Below, one piece after another: positions 32,111-61,418 of a stretch of 64,000 nt of DNA. A model generated the notes under the pieces. The model searched no databases. It worked only from the letters and a program-made list of their open reading frames with translations, and was not told the DNA's origin. Positions within the stretch are counted from its first letter, which is position 1; every line of letters begins with the position of its first letter. Position numbers and translations under genes: made by a program. Where the stretch lies: positions 73,470,001-73,534,000 of the forward strand of contig NC_043000.1 in the NCBI RefSeq assembly GCF_006345805.1, in the 5' to 3' direction. The DNA is from Octopus sinensis. Lineage: Eukaryota.

Positions 32111-32671
32111 TGTTGTGTAGCAATTTATCACATAAATCATTATTAACTTCATACAGAATTTGTTTTTAGAATTTCTAAAATTTCTAATATCAGATTTTAG
32201 TTTAGCTTAAAAATGGTTGTAGTACTTACAAAATCTTATATTAGTTACTAAATCAAGGGGGTATACCTCAAAAGGAACTAAATCTTTTATCTAGGGTGGA
32301 TATTTATATGTCCTTAAATCATAATGTTCTGTGAAAGTAGATGTTAGTGTAACATCAAAAAAATAAAGCCTTCCATCTCATGAGGTCTTATACTTTCCCT
32401 AGAAGCATCCTAATCATCATCATCATCATCATTTAACGTCCGCTTTCCTAAGATATGAGTTATTCATTGCTGTAGGTATATTTTTTAAGGAGTAATCCAC
32501 GTAATATAAATCCATAATAGTGTGTATAAAATTTTTAGAATTCTTATAGTCACTCAACTTTACATAGTTATATGCCAAACAATGTGGAAATTGAATTTGC
32601 AGCAGAAAACAACATACAATTTTTACATTATTTATATTTGACGAATATTTGTCCTCATCTTGTTTGTTGTT

Positions 32672-32717
32672 AACACAATGTTTCGGTTGATATACCCTCC
32701 AGCCCTCATCAGGTGGT
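32672..32717 (-). ncRNA. Minimal type I hammerhead ribozyme motif (left arm)
   Basis: Minus strand: ACCAC-CTGATGA-G-GGCTG-GAGGGTATAT-CAACC-GAAA-CATT-GTGTT. Confidence 0.65.
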
Positions 32718-33044
32718 TTGGGGAAATTTTGAACCTGTGTTCTCATTCCTAAGGTATTCTTTGATGTTGTTGTTGTTATTATTATCATTATTATTATTAT
32801 TCAGGTCACTGCCTGGAATTGAACTCGGAATCTAGGAGTTAGTAACCCACGCTCTTAACCACTACACCATATGCCCGTGGCCCACGGACATATGGCATAG
32901 TGGTTAAGAGTGTGTGCTACTAACCTCAAGATACTGAGTTCAATTCCAGGCAGTGACCTGAATAATAATAATAATAATAATAACAACAACAACAACATCG
33001 AAAAATACCTCAGGAATGAGAACCCAGGTTTGAAATTTCACCAA

Positions 33045-33087
33045 GACACCTGATGAAGGCTGGAGGGTATATCAGCCGAAACGTGTT
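33045..33087 (+). ncRNA. Minimal type I hammerhead ribozyme motif (right arm)
   Basis: GACAC-CTGATGA-A-GGCTG-GAGGGTATAT-CAGCC-GAAAC-GTGTT. Perfect 5-bp stem II. It is 3 nt shorter than the left arm at the cleavage triplet, so it is probably inactive. Confidence 0.65.
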
Positions 33088-33176
33088 AACAACAAACAAG
33101 ATGAGGACAAATATCTGTCAAATGTAAATAATATAAAAATTGTACATAATTCTTCATCTCTTAAATATAGAACAGG

Positions 33177-33755
33177 CAAAGACCTGTTGAGGCAAGTGAA
33201 ATCGAAATCAAAATCAAATTCAAAGACTGGCATCCATGCTAGCGGGGTGCAAAGAGTACCATAGGAGTGTGATCGTTGACAGAGCAGCTAACCGGCTTCC
33301 GTACCAGTGGCATATAAAAGGCACCATCTGTGTGTGATTGTTACCGGTGTCACATTACTGGCACTTGAGCCCTGTGCTAGTAGGGTGCTATGAGCACATT
33401 CGAGTGTGATCGTTGCCAGAGCGGCTAACTGGCCTCTGTGCCGGTGGCACGTAAAAGGCATCACTCGAGCGTGATCGTTACCACCATCACCTTACTGGCA
33501 CCTGTGCCGGTGGCATGTGTAAAAAGATTTGAGCGAGGTCATTGCCAGTACCACCTGACTGGCTCCCGTGCTGGTGGCATGTAAAAGCACCCATTACACT
33601 CTCGGAGTGGTTGGTGTTAGGAAGGGCATCCAGCTGTAAAAACTCTGCCAGATCAAGATTGAAGCCTGGTGCAGCCATCTGGTTCGCCAGCCCTCAGTCA
33701 AATCATCCATCCCATGCTAGCATGGAAAGTGGACGTTAAACGATGATGATGATGA
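33177..33755 (+). mobile_element. RTE 3' UTR fragment with (GAT)n tail
   Basis: Same repeated GTGCCGGTGGCAC(G/A)T units as 18317-18760 and 57650-58110. Ends GGACGTTAAACGATGATGATG. Confidence 0.85.
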
Positions 33756-34271
33756 AGGCAACATATTTAGAGGTATATAGTTTATAGATTCAATATAGGT
33801 AGAATCAACAAAAATACTCCATTCAGTGAGAGATAAATATCAATTTAATTCACATACTGAAAGAGCTATTAATAGTTTCATGTTTTTATAATACTTTAAC
33901 TAGGCATATTTATAAAATACACCATGTGTCTCCAAGCAATTTTCCAGGCTTTGTTTATCTGTTAAATATATTTTAAAAACAAGGATGCTGGATAAAAAAA
34001 ACCTTCCCATAAAAACCTAATTACCACCCTACTCAAACTCATACAATCAAAGGTGATTTCAACTGAACAGAAACTATATAAAGGCAAGACTAACTCTAAT
34101 GCACTGCAATCTGATGTTGGCTTACCTGGGCAAAACCTTGAAATCACTGTCAGCAACATTCTTGTATAAGAATCATAAATTTGTACTCTGCAAAAGTATA
34201 GAGTAACCCATCAGATTAATGTAAAATTGTTTTATTATAAATGAACATAAAAACAAGCATTTATATATATA

Positions 34272-34331
<60 letters not shown>

Positions 34332-34367
34332 AATAATCAAAATAAGCAACAAGAATGACTCTGGTAA

Positions 34368-34455
34368 TTTGGTACGATCATTTCGTACTACATCATTTTA
34401 TTAAATGTTGTAAGTATTACAACAGATTTAAGATGCTGAGTACTCATCAGCCAAA
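34368..34455 (-). ncRNA. Type I hammerhead ribozyme with a long stem II insert
   Basis: Minus strand: TTTGG-CTGATGA-GTACT...AGTAC-GAAA-TGATCG-TA-CCAAA. Stem I TTTGG/CCAAA, stem II GTACT/AGTAC, GUA cleavage triplet. Confidence 0.8.
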
Positions 34456-35402
34456 TATAGAGGTTTTCCATTAATACAAAAATTTTCAAATCAAGTGGCA
34501 ACATTATAGAGAAGGTAGATATATAGACAAAGATGTGGATTTAAATGTTAAGAACATATGAGGTAGTAGAGTCCGTCCACTGACTGACTAAGATCTGGTT
34601 GTTCTGACTGCTGTAAGGTTAGAAGCAATAAAGATGTTTTAATTGTAGAAATGGGGTAAAGGGGGTTTCAGAACTCCATAAAAGGAATTCATGTTGAAGA
34701 GAGCAGTTGCCACTAATAAATGCCAATTACTGCTATTTGATGAGAGAACTAGGTCAATGTCAAATGGTCCCAATCCCAATCACAGAGAGTGTAATTTAGA
34801 GAAAAAAAGAGAAGAAAAGCTATCACTTATTATTATGAGTAGGCATAGTACTGGGGGAAAGCCTTATTAATTTTAAAGCTAGATTAATTTTAGAAAAAAA
34901 TTCAATTTCAAGTTTGCAGTGAAGTTTTTATAGTCATCTATGAATGTTAAATTGAAAGCCAGTATTGGTATATTTCTTCTTATTTGATTATAAAGAATTA
35001 AAATCTGAAAAATATAGGAATACTCACAAAATTATTATTTAAAGTATTTAAACGTTCGGGTTGTGCAATGTATACAAGATTCTCCCAACTCCAGACGATT
35101 ATTCAACAGATTTGTATTACTCTGATGTTTTAAAATTTCATAAGTTTCCATAGAACAAAGTTGACAACCATCCCTACTATTTCTATAAGGTTGCGCCCTT
35201 CTAACTATATCCCATTTTAGGTTGAATTCTATATTATTTGTTTTTAGTTCCCAAATCTTGCTAGATAGTGTTGTGCAACCTGCCTTATGTTTGAATCTAA
35301 AAGAGGAAAAATGATTAAGACGTCTTTTAAGATCTACTGAACAACCGAAATAAAGAAAGCTATTGCTAGAAGTTATTATCATGCATTTATAAATTACGTT
35401 TT

Positions 35403-35404
<2 letters not shown>

Positions 35405-35469
<65 letters not shown>

Positions 35470-35660
35470 TGTATGTATATGTATGTATGTATATGTGTAT
35501 GTGTGTGTGTATGTATGTATGTATATGTGTGTGTGTGTGTATGTGTGTATATGTGTATGTGTGTGTGTATGTATGTATGTATGTATATGTGTATGTGTGT
35601 GTGTATATATATGTCTATATATGTATATGTGTGTGTATATATATGTCTATATATGTATAT

Positions 35661-35692
<32 letters not shown>
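35405..35692. repeat. (TA)n/(TATG)n/(TG)n microsatellite
   Basis: Direct inspection. Confidence 0.95.
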
Positions 35693-36529
35693 ACCAGAGA
35701 CTGAACAAGCAAAACATATGGTCTCACTTTAGAGTATTTAATTTATAATTTAAATATAGTGCTGAGTAGTTACAGTAAATAAATAAAGTCTCAATTTAAT
35801 ACATACACTGAAAGAGCTACCAATAGTTTCATGATTTTATGATACCCTAGCTAGGTATATTTATAAAATATCCCATGTATCTCCAAGCATTCTTTCAAGC
35901 TCTGTTTATGTACTAAATATATTTTAAAAACAATGATGCTAGACTGTGAGAAAAAATGAGAAGGAAAAACTCAAAGAAGGTTGATGTAAAAAATGGAATG
36001 AGAAGAAAGAAATGAAAGTGTAGTGGGAATATATATTCAGTACTAGGTGTTGATGTTGCTGCATGTATATTATTACAAGAGTTCATATAGAGATGAAAGA
36101 TCAATTCAAGAACTTATATATTTACTACATGAAAATATATTTTATTTACTGGTCGATGATGATACATAATCAAAATGTAGAATCTTCTTGAATGAAGTAA
36201 TCTATGCAAGAAAGTTCAGAGATAGGAAACATAGAAATAGCAGCTAAGTGGTGGTTTACAGTTATGTGGTGTAGAGAAATAGACAGACATAGCAATGACA
36301 TAATTGGCTCTAAGTCTAATCTACTAAGAAGCAAAGAGCAGGGTTAGCGAGCTGTTTTTATTAATAGAGTGCTAGACATTCTATAAACTTCCAAGAGAAA
36401 TACTAAGCTTCTTGAATAATTAAGAATCACATCTCATGACACAGATGCTTTGAGAAACTTAATAAAGGGAGGTTACTCTGTAAGCCTTCTTTCAAGGGAG
36501 ATCATTCAACTATTTAGCTACATAGATCA

Positions 36530-39500
36530 CTACACACCCCCTAGGCAGAGGTAATGTTATACAATAATGAAAATAACAAAAATGTATACATCATAAAATG
36601 TCAAACAATAGGAACAATATCACAGTTCAAATGTAATAAATGTTTATTAAATTCTTGGGCCAATGCACATGTCTACCACTTTTGGTAGTCAGAGTTTGTG
36701 AAGTTGTGTGTAAAGGATGCATTTGTAATGCTGTGTGTGTGTGTTGTCTGTAGTGGGGTTCGAAATAGTTTTTTCAATGTGAGCCCTTTTTAGTCTATCA
36801 ACAGAAATAGTGTCTTTACTCCCGTTAATGTCTAAAGTGAAAACTTTATCTATACAAGAAAGCACATGAAAGGGTCCTGAATACGGTGCTGTTAAAGGAT
36901 TTTAACAGCATCGTTATGAACAAAAACATGAGTCCAAGAAGAATAGTCCTCAGGCAAATATGTTTTAATGTTTTGTTTTCTGGTATTCATATGTGGTAAC
37001 TTTAACATATAATCACGCAAGTATTCAACAAAATTTGTGGGTTTGCTGGAACAGCCATCTGACCAGGCAGCGTCAATGAAGAACCATAAAGTAATTCTGC
37101 TGAAGAATATCCAATATCTTCTTTGATAGAAGAGCAGAGACCCAAGAGAACAATAGGAAGAAATTCAATCCATCGAGATGAATCAGCAGAAGCACACAAC
37201 GCAGCTTTAAGCTTTCGATCTTACTGTTCGAAGCTGGGTGGTAACTAGTGGAATGGATGTGTTTACTTCCTAAAATCTTGGTTAGTTCCTGGAAAAGTTT
37301 AGCTTCAAATTGATGTCCGTGATCTATTGTTATTTTTACAGGTGTTCTGAAATGAGAAATCCATCCTGTGACTATAGCTTGTGCCACAGTTTGAGAAGAG
37401 ATATCTGTGAATGGAATAACTTCTAGCCAGCTGAAAAAACGATCAATACAAGTTAATGAAAACGTGTAGCCCTGACTCGCAGGCCAAGGTCCTACTATAT
37501 CAACATGTATGTACTGGAATCATGCATCTGGGGTGGAGAAAGTACCTAACAGTGCACGAATATGTTTATGTACCTTGGATCTTTGACAATCGACACAGGT
37601 ACGGGTCCAGTTAGCTATGTCTTGATGCCTGTTCAACCAAACAAAACGAGCTGAAATAAGCTTCAGTGTTGCTGTTATACCTGGATGTGAAATATTGTGT
37701 AGTCCTGAGAAAACGATATGGCGATGCTTTTCAGGAACTAAAGGGTGAAGTTTACCAGAAGAAAAATTGCAAAAGATATGTTTGTTTGATGTCGCAACAG
37801 GAAAAAATTGGAGGTCAAAAGGAACTAGTTCTGGTTGTTGTATATTATTCAAATCAATGGATGGTTGATCTTCTGGCATTTCATCCAAGTTAATTTCTGC
37901 AGTTGAAAATAACGTGTTAACAGGTAAACAGGATAAAGTATCAGCAGCAATGTTCTCAGAACCTGGAATATATCAGATATCACTCGTGAATTGTGAAATG
38001 TAATCCAAATGTCGAATGTCTCTTGGAGAAAATTTATCTGGCTTGCAGAATGATAACGGCTTATGGTCTGTAAATATTGCAAAGTTTCTCCCTTCCAAAA
38101 TGTGTTGGAAGTGTTTAACTGAGGGGTAAATAGCTAACAGTTCATGATTGAATGCACTATATTTAGTTTCAGCTGGTTTTAACTGCTTAGAGAAAAACAC
38201 TAGAGGTTGCCATTTGCCATGGTGGAGTTGTTGAATGACTGCACTGACACCAATTTCAGACGCGTCAACTACAAGAGAAATTTTTGTATCAGGAATGGGG
38301 TGAGCTAACATGGAGACACAAGAGTTTCTGTTTAACATCAAAGTGATCTTTTCTGTTCTCTTCTTGCAGTTTTGCAGTAATTTGTTGAGAAGGTATAATG
38401 TTTCAGCACAATAAGGTATAAAACATCAATAGAAATTAGTTAATCCAAGAAATTGTCTGAGCTGTTTTAATGAAACAGGAACTGGAATTTTTATGATAGA
38501 TTCAACTTTTTCTGGAAAAGGCCTAATTCCATCCTTATCAATAGTGTGTCCAAGGAAAGTGAAAGAAAGCACACCCAAAATACTTTTGGTAGCATTGATA
38601 TGAATTTTGTATTGAGAAAGCCTTTCGAAAAGTTGCTTCAAATAAATGTCATGTTCTTTCTTGGAAGAACTAGTGATGAGAAGATTGTCAATATAGGCAT
38701 AGACGAAATCTAATCCATGTATTACATCATCAATGAAACGTTGAAAAGTACTAGTGATGTTCCTTAACCCAAAGAGCATGGTAAGAAATTCAAATTACCT
38801 GAATGGATTTGTAAGAGTCATTTTTGGAATATCATTTGGGTTTATTAGAATCTGATGGTATGCTTGTATCAAATCTATTTTTGAGAAAATAATGCAATCA
38901 TGCAGAGAAGATGCAAAATCTTGAATATGTGGTATAGGATACCTATCTGGAATGGTAATAGTGTTGTGTCATCTATAGTCACCAGTAGGTCTACAATCAC
39001 CAGATTTCTTTTTCACTAAATGGAGTGGTGATGACCAGTTACTCTTTGAAGGATGAATTATTCCAAGCTGGAGCATGTGGCTAAACTCTGCTTTAGCAGC
39101 TTTGAGATTTTCAGTTGGTAAACGTCTAGGACACAAGAAAACAGGAGATCCATTGGTGGTTATATGATGAGTATGTGTTGAAGCATTGACATTGAAAATT
39201 AAATTTGTTAATTCAGGAAAGGATTGAAGCAAGGCTTGATATTTGTCTGGTTGATCTGCAATAAAATATAATGGGCTAACAGAAGTAGGACTGAAATATC
39301 TTCCTAAAGCATATAACTGTGTACTGCTATCGATAAGTCTCTTTCTTTTCACTAATAGTGAAAAATGGTGGAGAAAATCAGCTCCTAAAATTGGGTGAGG
39401 AAGGTAAGCAATGATGAAAACCCACTACTGGAAATTTCATTTAAGATTCAGATCCAGTGTGAGTGAAATCTCACTAAAAGTTTTAATGGGAGTGCTGTTG

Positions 39501-40485
39501 ACTGCTTGAAGAGATATGTCAGAAGCAAAAAGTTTTTCTTTGACAAATTTAGACAGCCATAAACTGCAGGATGCTCTGGAATCCACTAGAAATTCCTTCT
39601 TAGACTCGAAATCTAGTATGTAAAATGCGTGACTAGGAGAAAATGTGCCAGGAACTGCAGTCATGCTCGGAGTTCGGCTTTTTAGTTTTCCTGAATTTTA
39701 AATGTTGAAAGTGAAATACATTTCTTAGCTGCAGAACCAATCTTATAATGATACCAGCAAAAAGGTTTTGATCTGCTGGGAGAACGGGAATTAGAACGAC
39801 GATGGTAACGAATTGAAGAACTTCAGTTGATTCATAAGAGATGAACTTCTGCAACTAGCTTATCTATAATCCTCTAAGTAGATTCACGAAATTCTTTGAA
39901 TTCAGAGGAAACTGTAGCAACTGGCAATGAAAGTTGTTCTGTTCTGGAGTGGATTTTGTTTACTCCAAAATGTTATCTGCCGATGCTGCAAGCTAGTCAA
40001 CTGTGCCAATATTGGTCAAATGGGCGAGCATATCTTGAACATACTGTGGTAATCTGGAGAAAAATAATTGTTTAAGCAACTTACTTTCAGCGGGGTTGTT
40101 CACTGTGAGCTGCCACATTTTTCTGAGCATTTGCGATGGTGTTCTGTCTCCTAAATGCATGTCGTTGAGAAATTTTCAAAACTTTTCGGAAAAGAGCAAG
40201 GTTCATCTTAAAACTTCATTTTTAATTGATGAATGCATTGCATCTGCCGGTGGAGCTGAAATAATATCTCACAATTCTCTAGTTAATGGTATAGAGCTAA
40301 GTAAAATGTAGAGCTGCTGTTGGTCTGAATTGTGTTTGTTTGCTGGCAAACCAGACAGCGATATCTCCTGTGAAAATTGGTAATACTGGATGATTCATAA
40401 CAGACATCGTCGTATGAGTTGAAGAAAATTGTGACATGGAAAGTATTTGAATATAATTAAATATGTAGAATAGGTTAGCAACCAT
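36530..40485 (-). mobile_element. Gypsy LTR retrotransposon internal region (CsRN1-like), gag-PR-RT-RH-IN, frameshifted
   Basis: gag LPIFTGDIAVWF; protease FLVDSRASCS; RT SKSNWSSPLHLVKKKSGDCRPTGDYR and FVYAYIDNLLI; RNase H VVDASEIGV...FTDHKPL; integrase HHCC (LHNISHPG...CVDCQ) and ITIDHGHQFE. Possible polypurine tract and LTR start (AGGGGGTG|TGTAG) at ~36534. The 5' end is lost at the RTE junction. Confidence 0.92.
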
Positions 40486-42968
40486 TATCTCAGCCTATAC
40501 CCCTCAGCCAGGGCTACCCGGTGGACAGATAGACCGATTCTATGACAACCTCTTACAGACTACTGCGTTGACGAATGACAGGGTCCTCTTTATTGCTGGT
40601 GACTTCAATGGACATGTTGGACAACATGCCGGTTTTGGCCCTCGCAATGAGGAGGGAACCAGGCTGCTGGAGTTCTGTGATGCAAATGATCTTATGGTTT
40701 GCAATACTAACTTTAGAAAACCTGCCAGTCACCTACTGTTCTGGCAGACACACAAGTCAAATTGATTACATCCTCACCAGAAGAAGGGAAAGATGGTTGC
40801 TTATAAATGCCAACACCTTCCCAGGCGAAGAATGTACCCCACAACATAGACTAGTAGTTAGTGACTTCAGGATCAGGGCTAAATGGATGCCCAGAAGACA
40901 ACTAGCATGGTGGAGAAGAGTCAGGAAGCTTAAAGATCCTGCAAATGGACAGAGATTTAGAGACATATTACTTGAAGCCTTTGACGAAATAGAAGGGGAT
41001 ATAGCTTCACATGATGTAGAAGACAACTGGAGGTGTCTACGGGACATCCTGCTGAGGGCCACTGACAAGATCCGTGGATGCTGCAAAGTTCACTCTCGAC
41101 CCAAAATCACGTGGTGATGGAACAATGTTGTTGACAGGGCTATTAGAGAAAAGAAACAGGCTTGGAAGGACTGGAAGAACGGTGGTAGCAGGGAATTGTA
41201 TTAGACTGCCAGAAAGGAAGCTTGGAGACAGGGTAATAGCCAGAGGGGAAGCAGATAAGAAAAAAATTTGCCAATGTTCTGCACCGTGAGGACCAAATCT
41301 TGAGGTATTTCATGTTGCAAGATAGTGTGTGAGAGAGAATCATGATGTGGTAGGAGAGAAATGTGTCCGCATGGATGATGGTTCACTTGCACTAAATGAG
41401 GCTGCAAAGAAAGGTGTTTGGAGAGGCCACTATGAAAGGCTGCTGAATAAAGAAAATGAATGGGATAAAGAGAGTCTGCCGAATGTCGACCCAACAGATG
41501 GAACAGCTATCTAAGTTGACAGTTCCTTGGTAGATAAAGCAATTAGAAGTATGAAGACAGGGAAAGCCCCTGGCCAATCAGGAATCACTGCAGAGATGCT
41601 CAAAATATGACTGGTGTCACAGCACTATAGTCAACTGCTACAAGGGAAAAGGTGACGCTTTAGATACAAATAATTACAGAGGTATCAAGTTGTTAGATCA
41701 GATAATGAAGGTCACGGAGAGGGTTATAGCCAAACTAATAGGGAGAGAGTCAGTTTAGATGAGATCTAAACTGAGATGCAGGGAAAAGCACCACTGATGC
41801 TATATTTCTGGTAAGATAGCTGCAGGAGAAATACCTAGCCAAAGATAAACCTCTGTACCTAGCTTTCGTTGACATGGAGAAAGCCTTTGGCAGACACACA
41901 AGTCAAATTGATTACATCCTCACCAGAAGAAGGGAAAGATGGTTGCTTATAAATGCCAACACCTTCCCTTATCTGGTGGTCAATGAGGAAACTAGAGATA
42001 GATGAATGGTTAGTGAGAGCTGTGCAAGCCATGTACAGTAAGGTGAGGGTTGGCAACGAGTACAGTGAAGAATTCCAGGTGGAGGTAGGGGTCCACCAAG
42101 GTTCAAACCTTAGCCCCCTTCTATTTATCATAGTCCTCCAGGCAATAACAGAGGAATTCAAGACAAGATGCTCCTCTATGCTGACGACCTTGCTCTAATT
42201 GCTGAGTCACTATCAGAACTAGAGGAGAAGTTTCAGGTGTGGAAACAAGGATTAGAATCGAAGAGCCTTAGAGTTAACCTAGCTAAAACCAAAGTTCTAA
42301 TAAGTAGGAAGGAAAGCAAACCACAAATCCCTTCAGGTAGATGGCCCTGCTCAATCTGTAGTAAAGGCATAGGTAGAAACTCTATAAGATGTACCCAGTG
42401 TAAGCTATGGACACATAAGAGGTGTAGCAGTATCAAAGAAAGGCTAACTGGGAAGATAGTTTTTGTATTGGCAGATGCACAGGAGCAATAAACACTGAAA
42501 ATATGCAGAGAATAACTTCTGCCACATTCCAGAGAGAAAAACTAGAAGTAGTGGATAGCTTCCGTTACCTAGGTGACCAAGTCAGTAGCTGGGGAGGGTG
42601 TGCTGAAAGTGTAGCTGCTAGAATAAGAATAGCCCGGGCAAATTTCAGAGAGCTCTTATCTCTGCTGGTGACAAAGGTCCTCTTGCTCAGAGTAAAAGGT
42701 AGACTGTATGACACATGAGTTCGAACAGCCATGCTACATGGCAGTGAAAAATGGGTCGTGACTGCTGAGGACATGCATAAGCTCACAAGGAATGAAGCCA
42801 GTATGATCCGATGGATGTGTAATGTCAGTGTGCATACTCGACAGAGTGTAAGTACCTTGAGAGAAAAGTTGGACCTAAGAAGCATCAGATGTGGTGTGCA
42901 AGAGAGACTGCTGGTATGATCATGTGGTGAGAATGGATGAGGATAGCCGTGTGAAAAAGTGCCACACT
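40478..42968 (+). mobile_element. RTE LINE (endonuclease to RT), truncated at both ends
   Basis: TIISAY.PQ, IAGDFNGHVG, SQIDYIL...QHRLVVSDF (endonuclease); LLYADDLALIAES (RT); WPCSICSKG..IRCTQCKLWTHKRC zinc finger. Switches abruptly to PLE sequence at ~42969. Confidence 0.93.
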
Positions 42969-44571
42969 AAATCGGTTGAATTCATCCTACAAAATAACCA
43001 CTTCATGTTTGACAATACATTTTACCATAAAAAATCCGGAATTGCTATGTGTACAAGGGCAGCAGCAGTCATTGCGAACCCAGCAATGGGCTACCAGGAG
43101 GTAATAATATATCAGGAATCTTTATCGACCTTTGGAAACCCCCTTTCCCCATACATAAAAGAGAATTGGAAAAGATTCCTAGACGATTGTTTTATACTCT
43201 GGAATGAAAACGCTGATAGACTCCTAAAATTCAAAAACCTGTTGAACAGTGTCAACCCAAACACAATTCACAATGGAGTACAACCAAAAGGAGCTTCCAT
43301 TCTTAGATATACTAATTAAAAAAATTAACCTCAAAATAGAGACTGACATATTTTACAAAACCAAAGATGCCAAACAATACCTACTTTTCAATTCATGCCA
43401 CCCAAGACACACTAAAACAAACACCCGCTTCAACCTAGCAAGGGGGATATGCACAATAGTGTCAGAACAAAATACCAGAAACTTTAGACTACAAGAACTC
43501 AAAAACATCCTAATTGGCAGACACTACCCCGTTCAACTCATAGAGGATGGAATCAGACGTGCAACAGAAATCGACATAGAAACTTTAAGAAAAGCTCAAC
43601 ACAGCAACACACCTTCCCCAAAAATACTGCCTTACATATCCACATACAACCCCAGAAACAAAGAAGCCTTCGCCATCATCACCCAGAATTTACCAATGCT
43701 TCATAAGGACCCCAAATTAAAGGAAATTCTAAACATACATAAAATCATAAAAGCTACAAACAACCTAAATTACTAAAAAAAGATCCTCACAAAGGCAAAA
43801 TTGTTTTCTGAAATAACGGATGCAAAAGTAAAAAAATGTGGTAGACCAAACTGCGCAACATGCCCAAACCTTCTAGAAGGATCAGAATTCCTCTTCAAAG
43901 AGGGACAAAATTCAAGATCAAATCTAATTTTACTTCTGCTTCAGAAAACCTAATTTATGTCATAAGATGCTCGGGCTGCCACCAAAACTACATAGCGTCC
44001 ATGGGATTATTGCTCAGATGCAGATGCACTCTGCATCGACAACAGATTGCATTCCCAGAATACAGAATGATATCCTTTAGTGAACATATTGAGAAATGCA
44101 CAAAGCAACTACTACCACAATTTTTAATTTTTCCATTCTATCAATGTGCTATTGGAACACCAACACAAATTAGATTAAAGAAAGAAACATTCTTCATTGA
44201 AAAATATAAACCAAAACTTAACCATTTCTAACATTTATAAACAAGGAAACTCATATCATTGAAAAAATACAAAGCGATTATCTCCCTTATACCGGAAAAA
44301 ATCCCTGTTTACCTTCCCCTGCCTGGAACGCCATACTTCACTTCATAGCGAAGACATGACACGATGTAGATAAAGAAATTTCAGAAATTTGAAAAGAAAA
44401 TATGAAACTGGTTATTTCTCCAAAAACTATGTTACTATACACAAAATTATATAACATTTTTTTAACGTAACGACTTAAATTTATTCTTTAACCTTATAAC
44501 ACAAGCCTTCTGTAGTATTTTCACTCTTTTATACATCCAATCATGTGCTTTCACATACCCACTCTCTTACC

Positions 44572-44620
<49 letters not shown>

Positions 44621-45470
44621 GTCGGGTTCGTTTGAATTTTCGATTTTTCGAATTCTCACTTCGTTCCGTTCCCTCCTCTTTGTCCGTTTTTACAGTTTAC
44701 TACAATGATGCGAAACTCTCTCCCTTTGCTTTAACTTCCCCTCTCTCTCTCTTGCTCTCTCTACCTCACCCTTCTCTCTAGCCTGTGTCTTCCTCTATCT
44801 GTCTCTCTCTCTCTCTCCTACTCCTCCTCACTTTCGTCACTGCTAAACCTTTCCGCCATTTGCATTCAGGCCATAAGGTCATGTTTCCTCGCGCTCGCCA
44901 GTTACCCTCTCGTCCATGCCAGAACAAAGGCCTCCGTTCGTCTTTTTCGTTTGTTCTCTTGTTTATTTTTGATTTCTCGTATTGTAATTTAATTCTCGTT
45001 ATGTATTTTCATGTACATGTATCTTTAATTTTGTATTTTTTGTGCAGTTCCTTGTTACGTCCCTTTTTGTGTTACATTTTTTCTTGCTCGTTTACCCCTC
45101 TACGAGTTTATTTTATTTTAATTCTCTCGTAGGAAGGCCTAGCTTGACCTTACGTGTTCTGTCTCTGCCTTCGAAACACGTGTCTGCTAGCGACAGCTGA
45201 TGAAGGGGATTTTCCTTGTGTAGCATGTCCTGTACTTCGTTTTTCTGCTGCACATAATTGTTTTTCCCGTTTTCGCTTTCGTTTCGTCTTGTTCCACGTC
45301 TCTGTCCTTCTGTTGTAACAAAATGTCTTCTCCGTTTTCGTTCTGTTGATTTTTTTCGTCTTCTTGTGATGTTCTGTACGTATATATATATTTATATATG
45401 CATGTATATATACATGTAGATGTCGGTACGTACATATATGTTTGTATGTATGCATATATTTTATTTATTA
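42969..45470 (+). mobile_element. Penelope-like element (Neptune-like): RT, Cys linker, GIY-YIG and 3' region
   Basis: EFILQNNHFMFDNTFY..GIAM..WKRFLDDCFILW; ELPFLDILI..FYKTKDAKQYLLFNSCHP; KKCGRPNCATC linker; NLIYVIRCSGCHQNYI...FSEHIEKC...FIEKYKPKLN. Hammerhead-like motif at 45168-45208. Confidence 0.88.
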
Positions 45471-45650
45471 CACTATATATATATATATATATATATAAAT
45501 GAGTGTATTTTTACCTTGTTAACAATTAACACGGAAAAAATATTCATATATATATATATATAGTTAATCCAAACATGAAAACACAACAACGCGAGGACGT
45601 GGAACAAATATAGTATTATTGGACGTTCAGGAAGGAAGGGAAGAAGGAGG

Positions 45651-45685
45651 GTTTAACGTTTCGAGCGTAGCTCTTCGTCGGAAAC
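45651..45685 (-). ncRNA. Minimal type I hammerhead motif (CCGACGA core variant)
   Basis: Minus strand: GTTT-CCGACGA-A-GAGC-TAC-GCTC-GAAAC-GTT-AAAC. Confidence 0.65.
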
Positions 45686-45808
45686 ATAGGAGAAGGAAAG
45701 ATCCAGAGGAAAAAAATCGCCAACGGTACACACGCGGTCACATTTTGAATGACATATACATATATATATATACATCTACATATATATATATGCATATATA
45801 TATATATA

Positions 45809-45855
<47 letters not shown>

Positions 45856-45866
45856 ATATATATGTA

Positions 45867-51577: not shown

Positions 51578-51612
51578 CATATACATATATATATAAATAT
51601 ATATATATATAA
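51293..51612. repeat. (TA)n/(CATA)n microsatellite
   Basis: Direct inspection. Confidence 0.95.
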
Positions 51613-51933
51613 ATTAAATTAGAGAGAAAACCACTATTAGGCAAATCAAACAGTGAAAGACAAACCAAAACATAAAAATAAATATAGATAATATAACATA
51701 TAAAATAAATGAAATATAAAATTTAAAATTTAAATTATTTAAATTTAAAATTTAAAATCTATATTCATATTTATAAATTTTTATATTTTTATATTTTTTT
51801 AATTTTAAATTTATAAATTTTTATTTTTTTTAAACTATCAAAAAGTATTAAAAAGAGAATCCTTATTTTATGATTATATCCTTATCTTATATATACATAT
51901 ATATGTATATATATGTATGTATATATATGTATA

Positions 51934-51974
<41 letters not shown>

Positions 51975-52308
51975 CCTAATAATATTTGGGAGTATATTGA
52001 AACTTACAGGGAAAAATTAGATTTAGGATGAAATCAGATTTCACAGATAAAACCACTATTAGGCATATCAAACAGTGAAAGACATAAACCAAAACATATA
52101 AACAAATATAATTAATATAATATACAAAATAGATAAAATATAAAATTTTAAATTTATATTTGTATTTATAGATTTTTATATTTTTATATTTTTAAAATTT
52201 AAAATTTATAAATTTTTAAACTTTAAATTTTTTTTAATTAATTAATTTATAAATTTTTTTTAACTATCAAAAAGTATTAAAAAGTTTAATATTATATAAT
52301 AAGTAAAA

Positions 52309-52406
52309 CCACTACGTACGTTTCATAACCATAATTCAATTCGAATTACAATCAATTTAAATTCAATTAAAAATTCGAATTATAATTATAGTCAATCTTC
52401 AGGTTA
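52309..52406 (-). ncRNA. Hammerhead motif with a long AT-rich stem II
   Basis: Minus strand: TAAC-CTGAAGA-TTGACTATAATT...AATTATGGGTTAT-GAAA-CGTACG-TA-GTGG. Confidence 0.6.
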
Positions 52407-53552
52407 ATGATAATAGTTAAATAAATAAGCAAATAGATTTAAACAATATATTTTAAGAAATAAAATAATAATAATAATAATAATAATTTTTCTTATAAAA
52501 AACTCTATTATCAAATTAGAAACTTAAACCATTAGGATAATGTCATACAATCCAATTATTATGTTAAATATTAATTTTTAAGGTAAAAAAATAGACAGAA
52601 AAATGTATTTATCTATTAAGATATAATATGGCTTTAAAAAACATAAACTCACGAATATCCTAAACTCAGTTATACTCAATATCTAATTTCCAAATTATTT
52701 AACAAAATAATCACTATTCATATTTTTAAATTTAAGTTCAAATCTAATAATTATAAAATATTTAAGAATAATAACTAAATTATTATCAATAAATATAATA
52801 ATTAAGATCTAAAATTTACTCTATCAATAAATATATAGACATAAAAGGAAAACTAAATAAATTAATTAGTCCATTATTACTTACGCAAATATTAAATATT
52901 AATGTAATATATTTATGAAATATACTAAAAAATTAAAGATGCAAAAAGCAAATTATAAACGTATAACCTATCTTAAAAGAACCGTATAACTATTCAATGT
53001 TCTATATATCTCGTTGGCTAAGTTATAACTTACAAATCACGTACAGTTATAATCTAATAATGAAATACATATCTTCAACAACTAAATAATTATACAATCA
53101 AATTAACAATCAGTAGTTATATAGTATCCAATATAATACAATATAACATAAATTATTAAAATAACTTTAATAAAAAGGTTTACTTAGCTTTCAAAAATCG
53201 TATCATTAACTAAACTTATAATAAACAGAGGGAAAATTCTTTTAACAATGGAAACTACGAATATATTTTATCAATGGAAAATGGCTATATTTAAGCTATG
53301 ATAGAACAAAGTCACTATTAGAGATATCTATGAATATATAATATGGCTTAAAAAACATAATAAACTCACTAATATCCTTCATCCAGTTATAGTCCAAAAT
53401 TAAATTACCAAATTATTTAACTGTTAGTTATTCATATTTTAGATTTAAGTACACATCTAATAATAAAATATTTAAAAAATAATAACTAAATTATTATCAA
53501 CAAATCTAAAATTTACGCTATCAATAAATGTATAGACATATAAAGAAAAATA

Positions 53553-54293
53553 GGTACTACTAGCGAAGACTGGACCCGGTGCGCGCCAAAACGCAGTCGC
53601 GTGTCCGCGCTAGCTAGTCGTAAGTAGTCGATCCTACAACGACTTGCGCGTATGCAAATGAGTTAATTTTACAGAATAAAATAAAAGAATTTTTTTAAAG
53701 AAAGTAAATAAATTATTTCTTAGAACAATGTATATGATTTTTTACACAAATCAAATAAAATGTGTGTGATATATTATTTTAGTTTTCATATTCTTTAGTT
53801 TTTAACCATGTGTGTGTATGTGAGTATATATATGTGTGTGTATATGTGTGTATGTATGTGTGCGTGTGTATATGTGCGCATATGTGTGTATATATATGTA
53901 TGTGTGTGTATATATGTATGTGTGTATGTGAGAAAGAGAGAAGAAACAAAATATCCTTAAGATGATAAGGAATGGAAAGTTGATATCGATTGATGGATTT
54001 GATAAGATGAAGATATTTTGGTAACAGTTCATTACACGTGTGTAAGAATGTCTGAGCGAGAGAGGAGAGCATATTATAGCATTCCATGAAGGGTTTTGTT
54101 TTTTTTTTTGGTTTGTTTTGATGTTTTCTTGTTTGTTTATTTACACTAAACCCTCACCCCTTGTCTTGATCATTAATTAGACCTACAACACAACTCATTT
54201 GCATACGTGCAAGGCGTTGTAGGATCGACTACTTACGACTAGCTAGCGCGGACACGCGACTGCGCACCGGGTCTAGTCTTCGCTAGTAGTACC
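53553..54293. mobile_element. Non-autonomous DNA transposon with ~100-bp TIRs and an 8-bp TSD (Merlin-like)
   Basis: TIRs GGTACTACTAGCGAAGACT...ATGCAAATGAGTT (53553-53664) and its reverse complement (54193-54293). TSD GAAAAATA at 53545-53552 and 54294-54301. GG termini with an 8-bp TSD fit Merlin/IS1016. Confidence 0.85.
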
Positions 54294-55421
54294 GAAAAAT
54301 AAATTAATTAATAAATCCAATACTACTTACATAAATATTAAATATTAATATAATATATTTATGAGATACATTAAAAAATTAGAGATAAAAATCAAATTAT
54401 AAACCAGTAATCTAACTTTAAAAAACCGTATAACTATTAACGATCTATATATCTCTTTGGCTAAGTAATATCTTACAATAACGTACAGTTATAATCTAAT
54501 TATTACATACATATCTTCAACAATTAAATCATTATAATAACAATCAGTATTTATATAGTATACAAAATAATACAATAAGACTTATTAAGATGCTTTAAAA
54601 TCTTAAATAGAAAGAGATTACTTAGCTTTCAAAGGCCGTGTCATGAACTAAAATTTTAAAACGGAGAACGTCTTTTAAGCGTTTATAAGAATACTCGTGA
54701 AATTACGTTATTAACAGAAATAGAATAAATAGATGAAAAATTCTTTTAACAATGAAAACTACGAATATATTTTATCAATGAAAATTACGAATAAATATTG
54801 TCAAGTTTATCTATAAATATAAATAGAAAGAAGTCACTATTAGAGAAATAACCACTATATACTATCAGATTTATCATTAAAATATAACTACAATAAATTA
54901 TACTCAATATTCAATAAATTAAATAATTAATTTAATTACCAATTACTGTGTATACTTTAAAAATCTTATAAGATTTAATTAATTTATATAAAAAATTACG
55001 TAGTAGTCAACTTAATATAAATAAAAAATAAAATTTATATGATTTAAGTATGGTTAATTAAATATAAAGTCAATTAAAAGTTAGCATAGTACAAATACTA
55101 TTTATTTTTATATTAAAAAAGTTACAGTTAGAAAGAAAGAACACCAGTGTTATATATGTATATAAATATATATACATATATATACATACATTTATATATT
55201 TATATATGTATATATATATACATATATATATACATATATATATCTATACATATATATATACATATATATATATACATATATATATACATATATATATACT
55301 TATATATATACATATATATATATATACATATATATATACACATATATATATATATACACATATATATATATATATGCATATATACATATGCATATATATA
55401 TGCTTATATATGTATATATAT

Positions 55422-56603
55422 ACTAGCATTATGACACGTCGTTGCCGGGTCATAGTGCTAGTGCATATATATATGTGTATATATATGTGTACTTATTACA
55501 TGTACATCTATATATATACATCTACACATAAAATACAAAATACAAAGTTATATATTGATATCACTAGTGATAACAATACTCAAAATATATAACACACTGG
55601 AATTGTTAGCCCGTCTCTTGTAATTTCGATCAATTGTATCTTGTCCTCCCTCTTGTATAGAAGTGCAGCTACAATCCAGCCTACCTCTACTTCTGGGGGG
55701 GGGGGCATTAAAAATTTTTTCCGGGACGTCCTACGTCCCAGATATAAAGGTAAAAATAAAATATTTCCACTTTGCAAGTTCGAGTCCAGTACTCCCTTGC
55801 ACGCTCCGTTGACTCGAAACTTGCTTCTATTGTGGCGAATTTACCGCCTCTGATTAGATATTTTTCATAGTCGCACCAAGACACTTTTCGAAGGTGCTTT
55901 CCTCCATGTGTTCAAATCTTTTTTCTCTACATTGTATACTTTATAGACAATAGTCTTTTCTTTAATTTAATTTTTTATTATCCATCTGGACTATTCCATT
56001 TCTGCACGCTAATTTTATTTTTAATTTATTCCCATTCATGTGAAACCACTTATTCAAGTTCATGTCATTGATGCAATTTTATACCAATTGCTATTTTTAC
56101 TTTTGTTATGTTACGATTATATTATACTTTAGTTTGATTTTAATTATTACTTACTAGATACAATTCAATTGTTATTATTATTTTTATTGTTAAAGTGAAA
56201 GTATCTGACATAAAATAGAGAAATGTTTTTGTTTCACTTTTAACACGTAATACTGAAATAGTGGAGAAGGTATGATATTGCTATGGGGTCGCCCTAGGCA
56301 AGAAGTTGAACATTTTTTTTGCCCATGAAACTACATGGACCATAAGTAAGGCATGTGTAAAATTTAAATGAAATAGGTTGTGTAGTTCTCAAGTTTTATG
56401 GAATCGTAGTGAAGAAGATATGATATTGCTGTGGGCTCGCCCTAGGCAAAAAGTTGAACATATTTTTTGCCCATGAAACTACATGGACCCTAAGTAAAGC
56501 ATGTGTAAAATTTGAATGAAATTGGTTGTGTAGTTCTCAAGTTTTAGGGAAACACACAGACAGACAGACAGACACACATTTTCAGTTTTATATATATAAA
56601 GAT
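55422..56603 (+). mobile_element. Helentron/DINE-1-like non-autonomous rolling-circle element
   Basis: 5' ACTAGCATTATGAC...GTCATAGTGCTAGT hairpin. 3' end has a ~150-bp tandem duplication (56262-56400 and 56411-56548), then (CAGA)n and TTTTATATATATAAAGAT. Inserted in (TA)n. Confidence 0.55.
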
Positions 56604-56654
56604 ATACATATATAAATATATATATGTGTATGTATATATATATATGTATATATT

Positions 56655-58110
56655 TCATAGCAGAATCACTACCGGAACTAGAAAAGAAATTTCGGGTGTG
56701 GAAGCAAGGGTTAGAATCAAAGGGCCTTAGAGTAAATGTAGCAAAGACCAAAGTTATAGTAAGCAGAAAGGCGAACTCAGCACACACTCCCTCGGGCAGG
56801 TGGCCCTGCTCGATCTGTAGGAAAAGTGTAGGTAGAAACTCCATAAGATGTACCCAGTGTAAGCTATGGACGCATAAGAGTTGCAGCAACATCAAAGGGA
56901 AATTAACTGATAAGATAGCTTTCATGTGCGGCAGATGCACAGGGACAATAGACACCACAGACACTCAGAAAACAGATTCCATCACACTCCAGGGGGAGAA
57001 ACTAGAAGTAGTTGATTGTTTCCGCTACCTGGTTGACCAAGTTAGTAATGGAGGTGGATGCTCAGAGAGTGTCACCACTAGAATACGAATAGCCTGGGCA
57101 AAGTTTAGAAAGCTCCTACCCTTACTGGCTACAAAGGATCTCTCGCTCAGAGTGAAAGGTAGATTGTATGATCATGTGTGCGAACTGCCATGCTTCACGG
57201 TAGTGAAACATGGGCTGTGACTGCAGAGGACTTGCGTAGACTTGAAAGAAATGAAGCTAACATGATCCGCTGGATGTGTAATGTCAGTGTGCGCGCACGA
57301 CAGAGTGTAAGCACCCTGAGAGAAATGCTGGACATAAGAAGCATCAGATGTGGTGTGCAAGAGCGACGCTTGCGATGGTATGGTCATGTACTGCGGATGG
57401 ATGAGGAGAGATGTGTGAAGAAGTGCCGCTCCCAAATAGTTGAAGGTATCAGGGGGAGAGGTAGACCCAGGAAGACATGGGATGAGATAGTCAAGCATGA
57501 CCTCCGAGCGTTGGGCCTCACAGAGGCAATGGCGAAGGACCGAGATCTCTGGAGATATGCTGTGACTGCGAAGACCCGGGATGCTTCCTGCCCCAGTTCC
57601 GCATAGCCCCTGCCCATTCAAAGTACCTTGGATTTCAGAACAACCCGCTGTGCTTGAGGAGACCTGTTGAGTCAAGTACATGAACATCGAAATAAATATC
57701 AATGGAAATAGTAGTTGTGATATCTGTGCCGGTGGCACATATAAAGCACCATCCGAACGTGGCCGATGCCAGCACCACCTCGACTGGCTTCTGTGCCAGT
57801 GACACGTAAAAAGCAGCATCCGAACGTGGCCGATGCCAGCGCCGCCTTGACTGGTTTCCGTGCCGGTGGCACGTTAAAAGCACCAACCGATCGTGGCCGC
57901 TGCCAAACTTCCCTGGCACCTGTGCCGGTGGCACGTAAAAAGCACCCACTACAATCGCGAAGTGGTTAGTGTTAGGAAAAGCATCCAGCTGTAGAAACAC
58001 TGCCAGATCAGACTGGAGCCTGGTGCAGCCTCCTGGCTTTCCAAAGCCCGGTCGAACCGTCCAACCTGTGCTAGCGCAGAAAACGGACGTTAAACGATGA
58101 TGATGATGAT
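56655..58110 (+). mobile_element. Relatively young 5'-truncated RTE LINE with 3' UTR repeats and (GAT)n tail
   Basis: ORFs 56624-57220 and 57178-57606 (IAESLPELEKKF...GRGRPRKTWDEIVKHDL) with one frameshift. Tail GGACGTTAAACGATGATGATG at 58085-58110. Confidence 0.93.
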
Positions 58111-58236
58111 TATATATATATATATATATAATATATATATATATATATAATATATATATTATATGCATATATATAATAAATGTTGTGTCTGAGGAGAGTC
58201 ATTTTCTTTTTGTGCCTCACCGGTAAAATCTCCACT

Positions 58237-58700
58237 TAATTTATCTCTATAAGTACACGCCTCGAAGAAAGCCAACACAAATTTCTAAAAAAATTCCGTT
58301 ATTACCACATCGGACCCGATTTCAGAGTTAATTCATAAGAACCTTCTCTTAATCGGTGATAAATGCGGCAAAGAAATAAATGAAATACTTATACCCATGG
58401 AAGAAGCAAACACTAAGTCATGAGCACAATTAAATACCCCAAATATATCCAAAATAGAAATTCTCCCGCACACCGCGAGACACGTGCGATTCAAACTGAA
58501 AACTTTTAATGAGTGAGAGAGTCCGGAAGTGAACACTATTAAATTTAAGTATTTCATTTATTCCTTTACCGCATTTATCACTGATGAAGAGAAGGTTCTT
58601 ATGAATTAACTCTGAAATCGGGTCCGATATGGTAATAATGGATTTTCTAAAGAAATTTCTGTTGGCTTTCGTCGAGACACGTACTTATAGTGATAAATTA
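58237..58700. repeat. ~155-bp inverted repeat pair containing a hammerhead motif
   Basis: 58237-58391 vs 58546-58700. The right arm has TATCA-CTGATGA-AGAG...CTCT-GAAA-TCGG-GTC-CGATA (58576-58629). Confidence 0.8.
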
Positions 58701-58776
58701 TATGGTAATTGAAGAAGTATCTATTTTCGGCACATTTGGCATTAGAAATTTTTTTCTTTTGCCCTTGTTTATAAGT

Positions 58777-58808
<32 letters not shown>

Positions 58809-58843
58809 AATACATATATATTTACATATATATATCATGCATA

Positions 58844-58887
<44 letters not shown>

Positions 58888-58889
58888 AT

Positions 58890-60340
58890 ATATATAATTC
58901 AAAAAGCAATAAAGATTCAAGTTAATTTAAATGAATTTACTTGAATATGGTACCTAACTTAGATGCACCAAAAAAAACTATACTGTTTTAACAATACAGT
59001 AATGTGGGGTGATTATAAGCGAGAAAGAAGCAACAGAATGGATAGGTTTTTAGTACAATCGTTTCATACAAGGACAGGCTTTATTAAAAGTTGTAAAAAT
59101 TACAGCATAAAACGTGTCCCGTACTCATCAGCTAAAATACATGTGAGTTCTCTAGACATCCTAGTGGTTGAGGCTATACTCATGAAGTAATGTAGATAAT
59201 TAAGTAACATAAACAGATTTCCAAAGTTCATTAAAGTTCTTTAAAGATGATGTACAGTCTTATCACAGAATTTTAAAAAAGTTCTAATAGCATCACAGAG
59301 AAGGTGACCTAATCCATAGAGCACATATGAATTTCCAGAGATATGATGAGGGATTACATACTCACAGAAGACAAATTTATCCATTGTTAATCACAACGAG
59401 GTGGGTCTCAATTCCTGCTTATTAGCATTACAGAGAGGGTGAATTAATCCTTTGTATAGATGCACAATTTCCAATGGTGTAGATGTAAGTTTCCAGAGAA
59501 ATGAAGAGGAATTTCATATTCACAGGCGATAATTTATCAATGGTTGAACACAATGAGGTAGGTATCAATTCTTGTTATATGATTAGGTATTTGCCACATT
59601 AATCACATTACTGCTATTTACAAGAGGCTGTAGCTATTTAACTTTTAAAGGCTGAAGGGCTTTCTAGAGAGGCCAAGAATAGAAAGGGAAGGGAATAGAA
59701 GAAAAGAGAGAAAATAAAGGAAGAGGGAGCAAAAAAAGGGGGGGAAGGGGACTAAAAGAGAAGAGAAAAGGAAAAAGAGAATAAGAAGAAGAAACAGAAA
59801 AAAGAGAAAAGAGAAAGAAGGGAAAAAATAAAAATAAAAAAGAGGGTTCTAGTTATACAGAAGAATTAGTAGACGGCAAGTCTGGTTTTAATTTACAGGC
59901 ATCTAGGAACTAGAGGAGAATATTATTCTATGGCCAGTAAAACAGCTAATTTATTGCTGTTGAAATCAGCTATGAATTTAAAGAGAATCTAAAGAGATAA
60001 CACAGTCAGGGGTTTAGGGGTCAGATGCTAAAATCAAAAGAAAATACATTAGGAAAATCTAAGAATAATCTTATCAAAAAGTCAATAAAACTTACTTATT
60101 TAATTTATTCATTTTATTGTCTTAAGGAGTTGCCGTTATTATTCATACATTGACGGACTACAGGTCAAATCTTAGAAGATCATTTACAAGGTGTTAGGGG
60201 ATTGTCTATCATAATGAAGATAATCATATTATCACCGAGGGGGTAGCCTTATTTATTTAATTTTGAAATAGAATTATGGGGCTATAGTATCTCATTATAT
60301 TTTATTAGAGTTATGCTACTTAAATTAGATTAAGTTAGGA
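58890..60340 (-). mobile_element. PLE-related non-coding remnant, similar in layout to 34330-35030
   Basis: Shares TTGCCAC...ATTACTGCTATTT with ~34708-34740 and has the same hammerhead architecture. Internal duplication 59293-59423 vs 59428-59578. Confidence 0.5.
59048..59137 (-). ncRNA. Type I hammerhead ribozyme with a long stem II
   Basis: Minus strand: TTTTAG-CTGATGA-GTACGGGACA...TGTCCTTGTAT-GAAA-CGATTG-TA-CTAAAA. Confidence 0.8.
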
Positions 60341-60436
60341 ATTATATATATGTAGGTCCCGGGTTGAGTCGGGGTTAAGCACAGTAAATAAGGTACTCAA
60401 TACATAGCAGAGTAAATTAATTTATTTTATAGAAGG

Positions 60437-60487
60437 AGCTTCTACAGGACTAGAACTGTTTCATTCAAAAGAAATCATCAGGAAGCT
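60437..60487 (-). ncRNA. Compact type I hammerhead ribozyme
   Basis: Minus strand: AGCTTC-CTGATGA-TTTC-TTTT-GAAT-GAAA-CAG-TTCTAGTC-CTG-TA-GAAGCT. 6-bp stem I, closed stem III, GUA cleavage site. Confidence 0.8.
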
Positions 60488-61418
60488 AGTAGACAAGAGT
60501 TGTTTTGGCATTTATACATTTAGGCAGGTTTAAATGGGTGGTGGTGGGGGACTTTTTTGGGGGTAGGCATGGCACAAAACTGTCATTATTAGGGGAGTGG
60601 TCAAAGGAATCGGTGGTAAAGTAGATAAAAGAATAAATAAAAGAATAAAAAAATAAAAAAAAAAAAAATATAAATAGAAAAATAGAGTTTTAGGTAAGTG
60701 GGGAGACTCTCACTTGTACATCTACATATATATATATACACATATACACATACACACACCCGCATATTCACATATATCTATACATATACATACATACCCA
60801 CATATACATGCATATATATATACATACGTACACATACATATACATATATATATATACATATATATACATATATATACACATACCCATGTACGTACACACA
60901 GATACACATATACATACATATACATACATATATGTATACCCACTCGCACATATATATACAAATGCATATACATGCACACACATACACACACATTTTTATT
61001 CTCTTATTTTAATTTTATTATTACTACTTTTGTTTATATCTTTATTTTTATCTTGACCGGTCAGCCTGTCTCAAGGGATATCTAAAGATTCCGTTTATCT
61101 ATCTACTTACTGATACGAACGCAAGCACTCACTCACGCCCACACACTCACACGTACACACACGCGCACGAGTTATATTCATACACGCCTACATCTACATA
61201 CATTCACGTATATTCATATACACGCATACACATACATACCTCAACACACCCACAGAAGACTAGTCCATACATATACACTAATTAATATATATACACATAT
61301 ACATATACACATACATACACATACATACATATACATACACATATATATATATATATACAATATATTCATAACATATACATACACATATACATTCATACAT
61401 ATATACACATACACACAT

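Follow-up and report, generated by a model that had tools for sequence, protein, structure and literature searches.

The question raised by this stretch of Octopus sinensis DNA (64,000 nt, referred to throughout as the window) is what lies behind 12 sites that an initial annotation had listed as hammerhead ribozyme cores, and above all behind the site at 45168(+). Our answer, which we hold with a probability of roughly 0.7, is that 45168 carries a complete hammerhead core laid over six helices, with A9 and G10.1 on separate strands and a predicted cut after position 45158, that this form is likely used by part of the Naiad clade of Penelope-like elements (PLEs), and that the motif sits in a cluster of PLE ends. 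If true, this would be an undescribed self-cleaving hammerhead form, with its core opened at A9/G10.1, in animal retrotransposons. The initial annotation rightly saw a core here, and the core is complete; what it missed is that the layout is not an ordinary one. Core positions below follow the hammerhead numbering, and the names "split form", X, Y and Z were coined in this analysis.

45095..45208 (+): split-core, non-circularly ordered hammerhead motif with six helices, from the split descriptor and pairing
45095-99/45204-08 (+): helix Y, 5 pairs
45100-06/45126-32 (+): helix Z, 7 pairs
45133-38/45167-72 (+): helix II, from pairing, with G10.1 at 45133 and C11.1 at 45172
45139-43/45186-90 (+): helix X, 5 Watson-Crick pairs
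45151-57/45176-82 (+): helix III, 7 bp
45159-63/45192-96 (+): helix I, from pairing
45173-76 (+): core GAAA, from the sequence
45197-45203 (+): core CUGAUGA, from the sequence
45158 (+): predicted cut after U45158, from the core register, 223 nt before a TA tract

Rfam, searched at the gathering score and at E<=10 over the whole window and three short stretches, reported no hammerhead family, and custom hammerhead descriptors were therefore written. When all six block orders were scanned, the one non-circular match had the order S-G-C and fell on the 45168 site. As a type I, II or III hammerhead the site was rejected, because no nested three-way junction fitted in the orders CGS, GSC or SCG. 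The motif contains C3-A9, G12-A15.1 and U16.1-H17, with helices I, II and III in register and the G10.1-C11.1 pair in place; what it breaks is the rule that A9 is joined to helix II directly or via one or two nt, G10.1 lying 70 nt upstream of A9. Across the six helices 35 of 35 pairs can form, 34 of them Watson-Crick. With the split-order descriptor 45168 was the sole match in the window, and any match was seen in 7 of 4,523 shuffled windows and an equally good one in none (0/4,523), the split-form descriptors and thresholds having been fixed after the motif was seen.

It was in the Naiad records of Morbakka, part 19 and Acropora that helices Y and Z first came to notice; they were then sought and found in the window. 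Here Z ends at 45132, directly before G10.1, and Y begins at 45204, directly after A9, so that zero bases lie between the two helices. In 50,000 shuffles of the upstream sequence Y and Z were never obtained at the observed strength (0); a looser no-gap setting (G.U pairs, shorter helices) gave 921/50,000, and 5,796/50,000 were found when gaps were also allowed. In types SGC and CSG an extra helix runs from the 3' strand of helix II to the 5' strand of helix I; its counterpart here is helix X, which arose in 125/50,000 shuffles. ViennaRNA assigned pair probabilities of 0.94 and 0.99 to Y and Z. A first guess at a fourth helix (45185-89 with 45221-25), together with a hairpin after A9, was dropped because X, Y and Z fit better. 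We regard it as very probable that the six-helix structure is conserved, and self-cleavage of 45095-45208 as drawn, which is a prediction from the modeled fold, as probable.

The cross-species comparison used the Naiad nucleotide file (54 records) in the supplement of Craig 2021 (PMC8557442), where the split order was first seen at the 3' end of Naiad_Obim. All 19 CTGATGA and all 36 CGAAAC places in this file were read by eye, two search words that miss motifs split by line ends or with other letters. Read in this way, the split form with I, II, III, X, Z and Y lies near the 3' end in 7/54 records (Naiad_Amil, Naiad_Anas, Naiad_Aacu, one Morbakka record, one part-19 record, Naiad_Obim and Naiad_Ovul), which come from corals, box jellyfish and octopus, with one record unassigned. 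Naiad_Aacu has one mismatch each in helices I and II, and in Naiad_Obim and Naiad_Ovul Y is only 3 bp long and Z pairs at 8/9. In I, II, III, X, Y and Z the window copy and the four unrelated types of split-form sequence are built from different pairs (the 5' strand of Y, for example, is C-G rich in the window and G-C in the part-19 record), and all of them retain G10.1-C11.1 and UH.

A complete type CSG was recognized by eye in eight motifs of the Naiad file, where the eight nematode records lie. Three directly precede the headers of the three Nippostrongylus records, and the other five were assigned by file order alone to Pristionchus (2), Haemonchus, Heligmosomoides and Ascaris. The remaining places in the file (8/19 CTGATGA, 22/36 CGAAAC), which are mostly coding, gave no fit. 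In the Chlamys file no split or CSG fit was recognized at 13 CTGATGA and 24 CGAAAC places, with 5 and 21 further places unread. As far as the parts of the cited papers used here go, which applies to all comparisons with the literature below, Naiads were described as being without canonical hammerheads, some being flagged as having "half cores" (Craig et al. 2021, PMC8557442). Four of the eight "half core" records (Parc, 3_Nbra, Hpol and Ovul) are explained by the split or the CSG reading, and a rearranged layout would explain why Naiads were reported to lack the hammerhead. Judging from sequence comparison, it is moderately likely that Naiads carry non-circularly permuted hammerheads in animals, namely type CSG in nematodes and an A9/G10.1-split, bridge-held form, putatively self-cleaving, in corals, jellyfish, octopus and others, of which 45095-45208 would be an intact octopus copy. 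Separately, Naiad records in parts 25-26 (CGAAAC places 34 and 36, CTGATGA place 43) hold another conserved structured 3' motif that fits neither form; it is possibly a different ribozyme or an end element.

The split motif lies within a non-coding element, downstream of a PLE remnant on the same strand.

44620..45381 (+): non-coding element of 760 bp that carries the split motif, with (CA)n(TA)n on one side and (TA)n on the other, from repeat/microsatellite analysis
42966..44231 (+): frameshifted open reading frame (ORF) remnant of a PLE, with reverse transcriptase (RT), C-terminal GIY-YIG and a CX4CxxC linker (Neptune/Nematis type), from protein comparison

The element 44620-45381, which has no second copy within the window, is likely the 3' end of a 5'-truncated PLE, and its chance of belonging to the Naiad clade is in our view slightly better than even. 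Its features in common with that clade (PMC8557442) are a 5' truncation, (TA)n as target, as in octopus, and the six-helix motif as read by eye; it differs in a sequence unlike the two octopus consensus ends and in being without an ORF, which in Naiads would carry an N-terminal GIY-YIG with CxC and DKA motifs. Insertion at (TA)n, with microsatellites on both sides, and 5' truncation are not specific to Naiads, because these traits are shared with Hydra and Neptune. An alignment of 44231-44575, 44620-45381 and 45555-45752 yielded nothing informative. A 12-nt word is common to the split-motif element (45290-45300, +) and the element of a minimal hammerhead described below (45598-45609, -), about 90 nt past either core; this may be chance.

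Besides the late choice of descriptors, several points weigh against our interpretation. The Naiad file was compared by manual reading and not by an alignment or covariation statistic, and in about 37/54 records, bivalves included, neither search word revealed a fit. Two motifs in it are partial: in part 8 (likely Beroe, a ctenophore) helix I is only 2 bp long, and in part 25 (a cephalopod part of the file) helix II is broken. No ORF and no recognizable coding remnant was found 5' of the motif in 44620-45381, a copy that by eye does not resemble the ends of Naiad_Obim and Naiad_Ovul, and the Neptune/Nematis-type ORF remnant upstream on the same strand ends 860 nt before the motif. In the nested ensemble of ViennaRNA, which cannot model pseudoknots, helices II, X and III reach only 0.4-0.5 and helix I 0.0. 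Finally, experiments in vitro on an anole PLE showed that its hammerhead required protein and that insertion did not depend on the hammerhead.

How such a core might work can be proposed from the pairing. With Z ending right before G10.1 and Y starting right after A9, the two would stack as one helix without a gap, and the nick in this stack would hold A9 beside G10.1, replacing the backbone link; natural hammerheads tolerate one extra base at this step (PMC4209133). Helix X would connect helix I to helix II at their distal ends, a link also present in the permuted ribozymes already published. All three forms (SGC, CSG and split) could then be understood as a single reversed cycle that is opened at different points, in the split form at A9/G10.1. 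With SGC and CSG (Eckert et al. 2023, PMC10085705) the split motif has in common the reverse cyclic block order, a short linker from helix I to helix II, and the extra helix that joins their far ends. It differs from them in a break within block C, at the A9/G10.1 step, which was assumed to be impossible in that paper, in having two more helices (Y and Z), and in its occurrence in an animal genome, since SGC and CSG were found there only in metatranscriptomes and metagenomes. By analogy with the processing of read-through RNA from tandem copies that has been proposed for PLE hammerheads, the motif may cut read-through transcripts of tandem copies near the end of the element, perhaps only with an element protein. 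In the literature searched on hammerheads, PLEs, octopus and permuted ribozymes (subscription papers outside scope), no description of the split form was found, and type CSG was described only by Eckert et al. 2023.

The remaining sites are of a more familiar kind. Ten of the 12 listed sites are hammerhead-derived, six being complete and four damaged; the other two, 33862 and 35813, have no core.

34367..34456 (-): complete type I whose helix II carries a long hairpin, with a TA tract following after 32 nt, from the descriptor scan
59048..59137 (-): complete type I, of the same family as 34367-34456, from the descriptor scan and alignment
58575..58635 (+): complete type I, right arm of an inverted pair with flanking TA tracts, from the descriptor scan
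58302..58362 (-): dead copy, left arm of the 58575 pair, with U4C, G8U and G at 17, from alignment
60437..60487 (-): complete type I whose 3-bp helix II has a U.U pair at its base, from the descriptor scan
45651..45685 (-): complete minimal PLE type with an extra A after A9, U4C and a palindromic 2-bp helix III, from the descriptor scan
32672..32717 (-): damaged minimal form with mismatches in helices I and II and a 1-bp helix III, left arm of the pair 32615-33144, from alignment
33045..33087 (+): damaged minimal form in which a 3-nt deletion removes the UH cleavage site, right arm of the pair 32615-33144, from alignment
52308..52407 (-): damaged, with an intact core, a long helix II with U.U base and a broken helix I, from the core scan
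33833..33992 (no strand): repeat copy taken for a degenerate hammerhead (33862), without a core, from the core scan and self-alignment
35783..35943 (no strand): second copy of the 33833..33992 repeat (the 35813 site), without a core, from the core scan and self-alignment

The copy at 58302 is called dead from the effect of changes at hammerhead G8 and position 17. The two core-less sites were rejected as hammerheads because both belong to a single repeat (76% between the copies over 229 nt) and show no CUGANGA on the minus strand. The counts exceed those in shuffled sequence: the strict type I descriptor gave 5 matches versus a mean of 0.46 in 200 block shuffles, of which 0/200 reached 5, and the loose one gave 7 versus a mean of 2.17 (3/200). 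Two of these 7 loose matches are at chance level and lie inside the gene DMTF1 (23133+ and 23720-). The presence of several unrelated families was borne out: because four of the ten sites form two inverted pairs, the ten represent 8 insertions, and these fall into 7 families, one of which has two members (the 34368 and 59048 sites, 70% alike). Proximity to (TA)n also held: 6/8 insertions lie <=300 nt from a TA tract versus a background of 25% (p=0.0045, with the tract list and the 300-nt cut-off set by the analyst). That the cluster is "unusually dense" could not be established, since the share of PLE-derived DNA is about 9% in the window and 19% in the hammerhead interval, which was chosen post hoc, versus 6.83% for PLEs in the O. 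vulgaris genome.

The cluster very likely derives from PLEs and is probably a pile of their 5'-truncated ends inserted at TA microsatellites. Leaving 45095-45208 aside, what it contains are ordinary PLE hammerheads of type I, most of them in decay, so that the cluster itself is ordinary and its sites are of a known kind at modestly high local density. The suggestion that PLE terminal repeats favor TA was supported by the end of a Hydra-type element near the 34456 motif, by the inverted pairs and minimal forms, which match published PLE hammerheads, and by a listing in Craig et al. 2021 (PMC8557442) of Naiad and Hydra families of octopus as preferring (TA)n; the same source describes inverted 5'-truncated copies and TA targeting for PLEs.

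[quoted passage not shown]

The 34456 motif follows this end on the minus strand at a distance of 580 nt, with TA tracts on either side. With the Hydra clade (PMC8557442) the element 34336-35406 shares the C-terminal GIY-YIG with CxxC/CxH (by eye, with Pfam below its cut-off), a canonical type I hammerhead near its end and (TA)n flanks; it differs in the long hairpin insertion in helix II and in the absence of RT and linker, being truncated before the RWK, DKT and CxCX5C region. Upstream of 59137 and 52407 tblastn found no GIY-YIG remnant, Pfam missed the Neptune-type fragments, and neither the Craig supplement nor that for O. vulgaris contained any match to words from the window motifs.

Compared with the PLE hammerheads of Cervera and De la Pena 2014 (PMC4209133), nine of the ten window sites share the type I order, and both sets contain minimal forms, in which an extra nt follows A9 and helix III is short and palindromic; in both, too, motifs occur singly or as pairs on opposite strands 100-700 bp apart. 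45095-45208 differs from that set in not being type I and in its stable 7-bp helix III. The full list of minimal-form traits (extra nt after A9, G10.1-C11.1, helix I of 4-5 bp, palindromic or absent helix III) is present at 45651, while 32672 and 33045 are damaged, each at different positions. A U.U at the base of helix II has also been described in axolotl HHR_Amex2.

One inverted pair has a further feature at its center.

32810..32955 (no strand): head-to-head tRNA-like heads with RNA polymerase III (Pol III) A-/B-box-like motifs, from general box patterns, at the center of the inverted pair

Each arm of the pair 32615-33144 consists of a tRNA-like head, an (AAT)n/(AAC)n run and a minimal hammerhead; ARAGORN and Rfam called no tRNA at 32810..32955. 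By analogy with the SINE-like (short interspersed nuclear element) hammerhead repeats of schistosomes, the pair is possibly a Pol III-driven non-autonomous PLE derivative.

Other explanations of 45168 have to be weighed against the split core. It is highly improbable that 45151-45208 is simply a type SGC hammerhead (Eckert 2023) with an unsplit core, whose helix II would use four G after an extra A. An SGC descriptor does fit 45168 alone once the extra base may be A (0 matches in 3,767 shuffled windows), but the published one (CUGAUGA-U-G or CUGAUGA-G) has 0 matches in the window, and the helix II in question contains two G.U pairs and has a duplex energy of 0.0, versus -8.0 kcal/mol for the upstream strand (45133-38 with 45167-72). 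The same G's also form helix Y, and in the Acropora and Morbakka records the SGC-type pairing of helix II is impossible. Variants with additional helices, for which Weinberg's work of 2015 is reportedly cited, may bear on X, Y and Z. The six-helix structure could also be real and no longer, or never, catalytic, serving as a protein-binding or 3'-end element of retrotransposon RNA. According to Eckert 2023 (PMC10085705), no known alignment of natural hammerheads places >2 nt between CUGAnGA and the adjoining stems. PLE hammerheads show weak cleavage and were dispensable in vitro. We consider such a non-catalytic role quite unlikely, given that CUGANGA, CGAAA and UH stay in register in every fitting record and that sister Naiads have type CSG, a form that cleaves in vitro.

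Unlikely, to a lesser degree, is that the split motif belongs, as its terminal ribozyme, to the Neptune/Nematis-type element 42966-44231, which would then have a long 3' region with an internal microsatellite, so that the form would not be confined to Naiads. The ORF lies on the same strand with the motif 860 nt downstream, and no hammerhead was found in 44231-44575; a (CA)n(TA)n tract separates the two, however, and the ORF is frameshifted whereas the motif is fully intact, which suggests a younger insertion of the split-motif element. For the cluster as a whole, the initial annotation had also proposed retrozymes, kept out of DMTF1 by selection against self-cleavage of pre-mRNA. None of the 8 insertions lies in 0-28 kb (p=0.01 if uniform), and retrozymes of Xenopus are depleted in introns. 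With non-LTR (long terminal repeat) retrozymes (PMC7229834; bioRxiv 10.64898/2026.07.22.740005) the window motifs share type I, low GC and the U.U at the base of helix II; they differ in having no head-to-tail repeats. Such retrozymes consist of >=2 head-to-tail units, each with a type I hammerhead, and are marked by abundant circular RNA; because no window motif lies within a tandem unit, none is a retrozyme by definition. Nor does the gap over DMTF1 support selection: it shows no strand specificity, antisense motifs being equally absent even though five of the 8 events are antisense-only and would be harmless there, and TA tracts are missing in the same way (0 vs 37). The insertions are moreover clustered and not independent, and 42-44% of Xenopus retrozyme copies are still intronic. 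This combined proposal is therefore very unlikely, and ends of PLEs at TA tracts remain our interpretation of the cluster.

The DMTF1 span of 9.6-28 kb itself proved to be real, and contains no strong motif, only the two chance-level loose matches.

9652..28004 (+): DMTF1, last six coding exons (residues 323-580), from protein comparison
2042..2282 (-): PLE endonuclease remnant, antisense in a likely DMTF1 intron (tblastn E=3e-9)

These six exons align to residues 323-580 of O. sinensis DMTF1, and the identity of the last one is 100% to O. sinensis versus 95% to O. bimaculoides. The gene starts left of the window, with residues 1-322 encoded outside, and 0-28 kb is therefore likely all DMTF1 gene body. 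No hammerhead was found at the endonuclease remnant 2042..2282(-). A further exon-like sequence with acceptor and donor signals lies at 30377-30482, 2.4 kb past the DMTF1 stop, with no protein match.

The remainder of the window is mainly broken retroelements and microsatellites, with a sharp boundary in microsatellite content: pure (TA)6+ tracts number 0 in 1-32600 and 37 in 32600-64000. A heavily broken PLE-like RT remnant was seen at 31350-32100 (YVDD by eye, weak tblastn E=0.019), and a broken Ty3/gypsy-type pol with RVT_1 and rve at 36800-40430(-). Two CR1/L2-type copies of long interspersed nuclear elements (LINEs), 45752-49700 and 61383-64000 (both -), are 92% identical and each end in a TA tract. 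RTE-type LINE fragments with a PHD-like finger occur five times (7100-8930, 18850-20230, 21400-22390, 40480-42970 and 56650-57600). Lastly, 110-bp inverted repeats (53553-53664 and 54192-54293, 88%) surround 530 bp, and this unit, which resembles a miniature inverted-repeat transposable element, sits inside an AT-rich duplicated region at 52610-55150.

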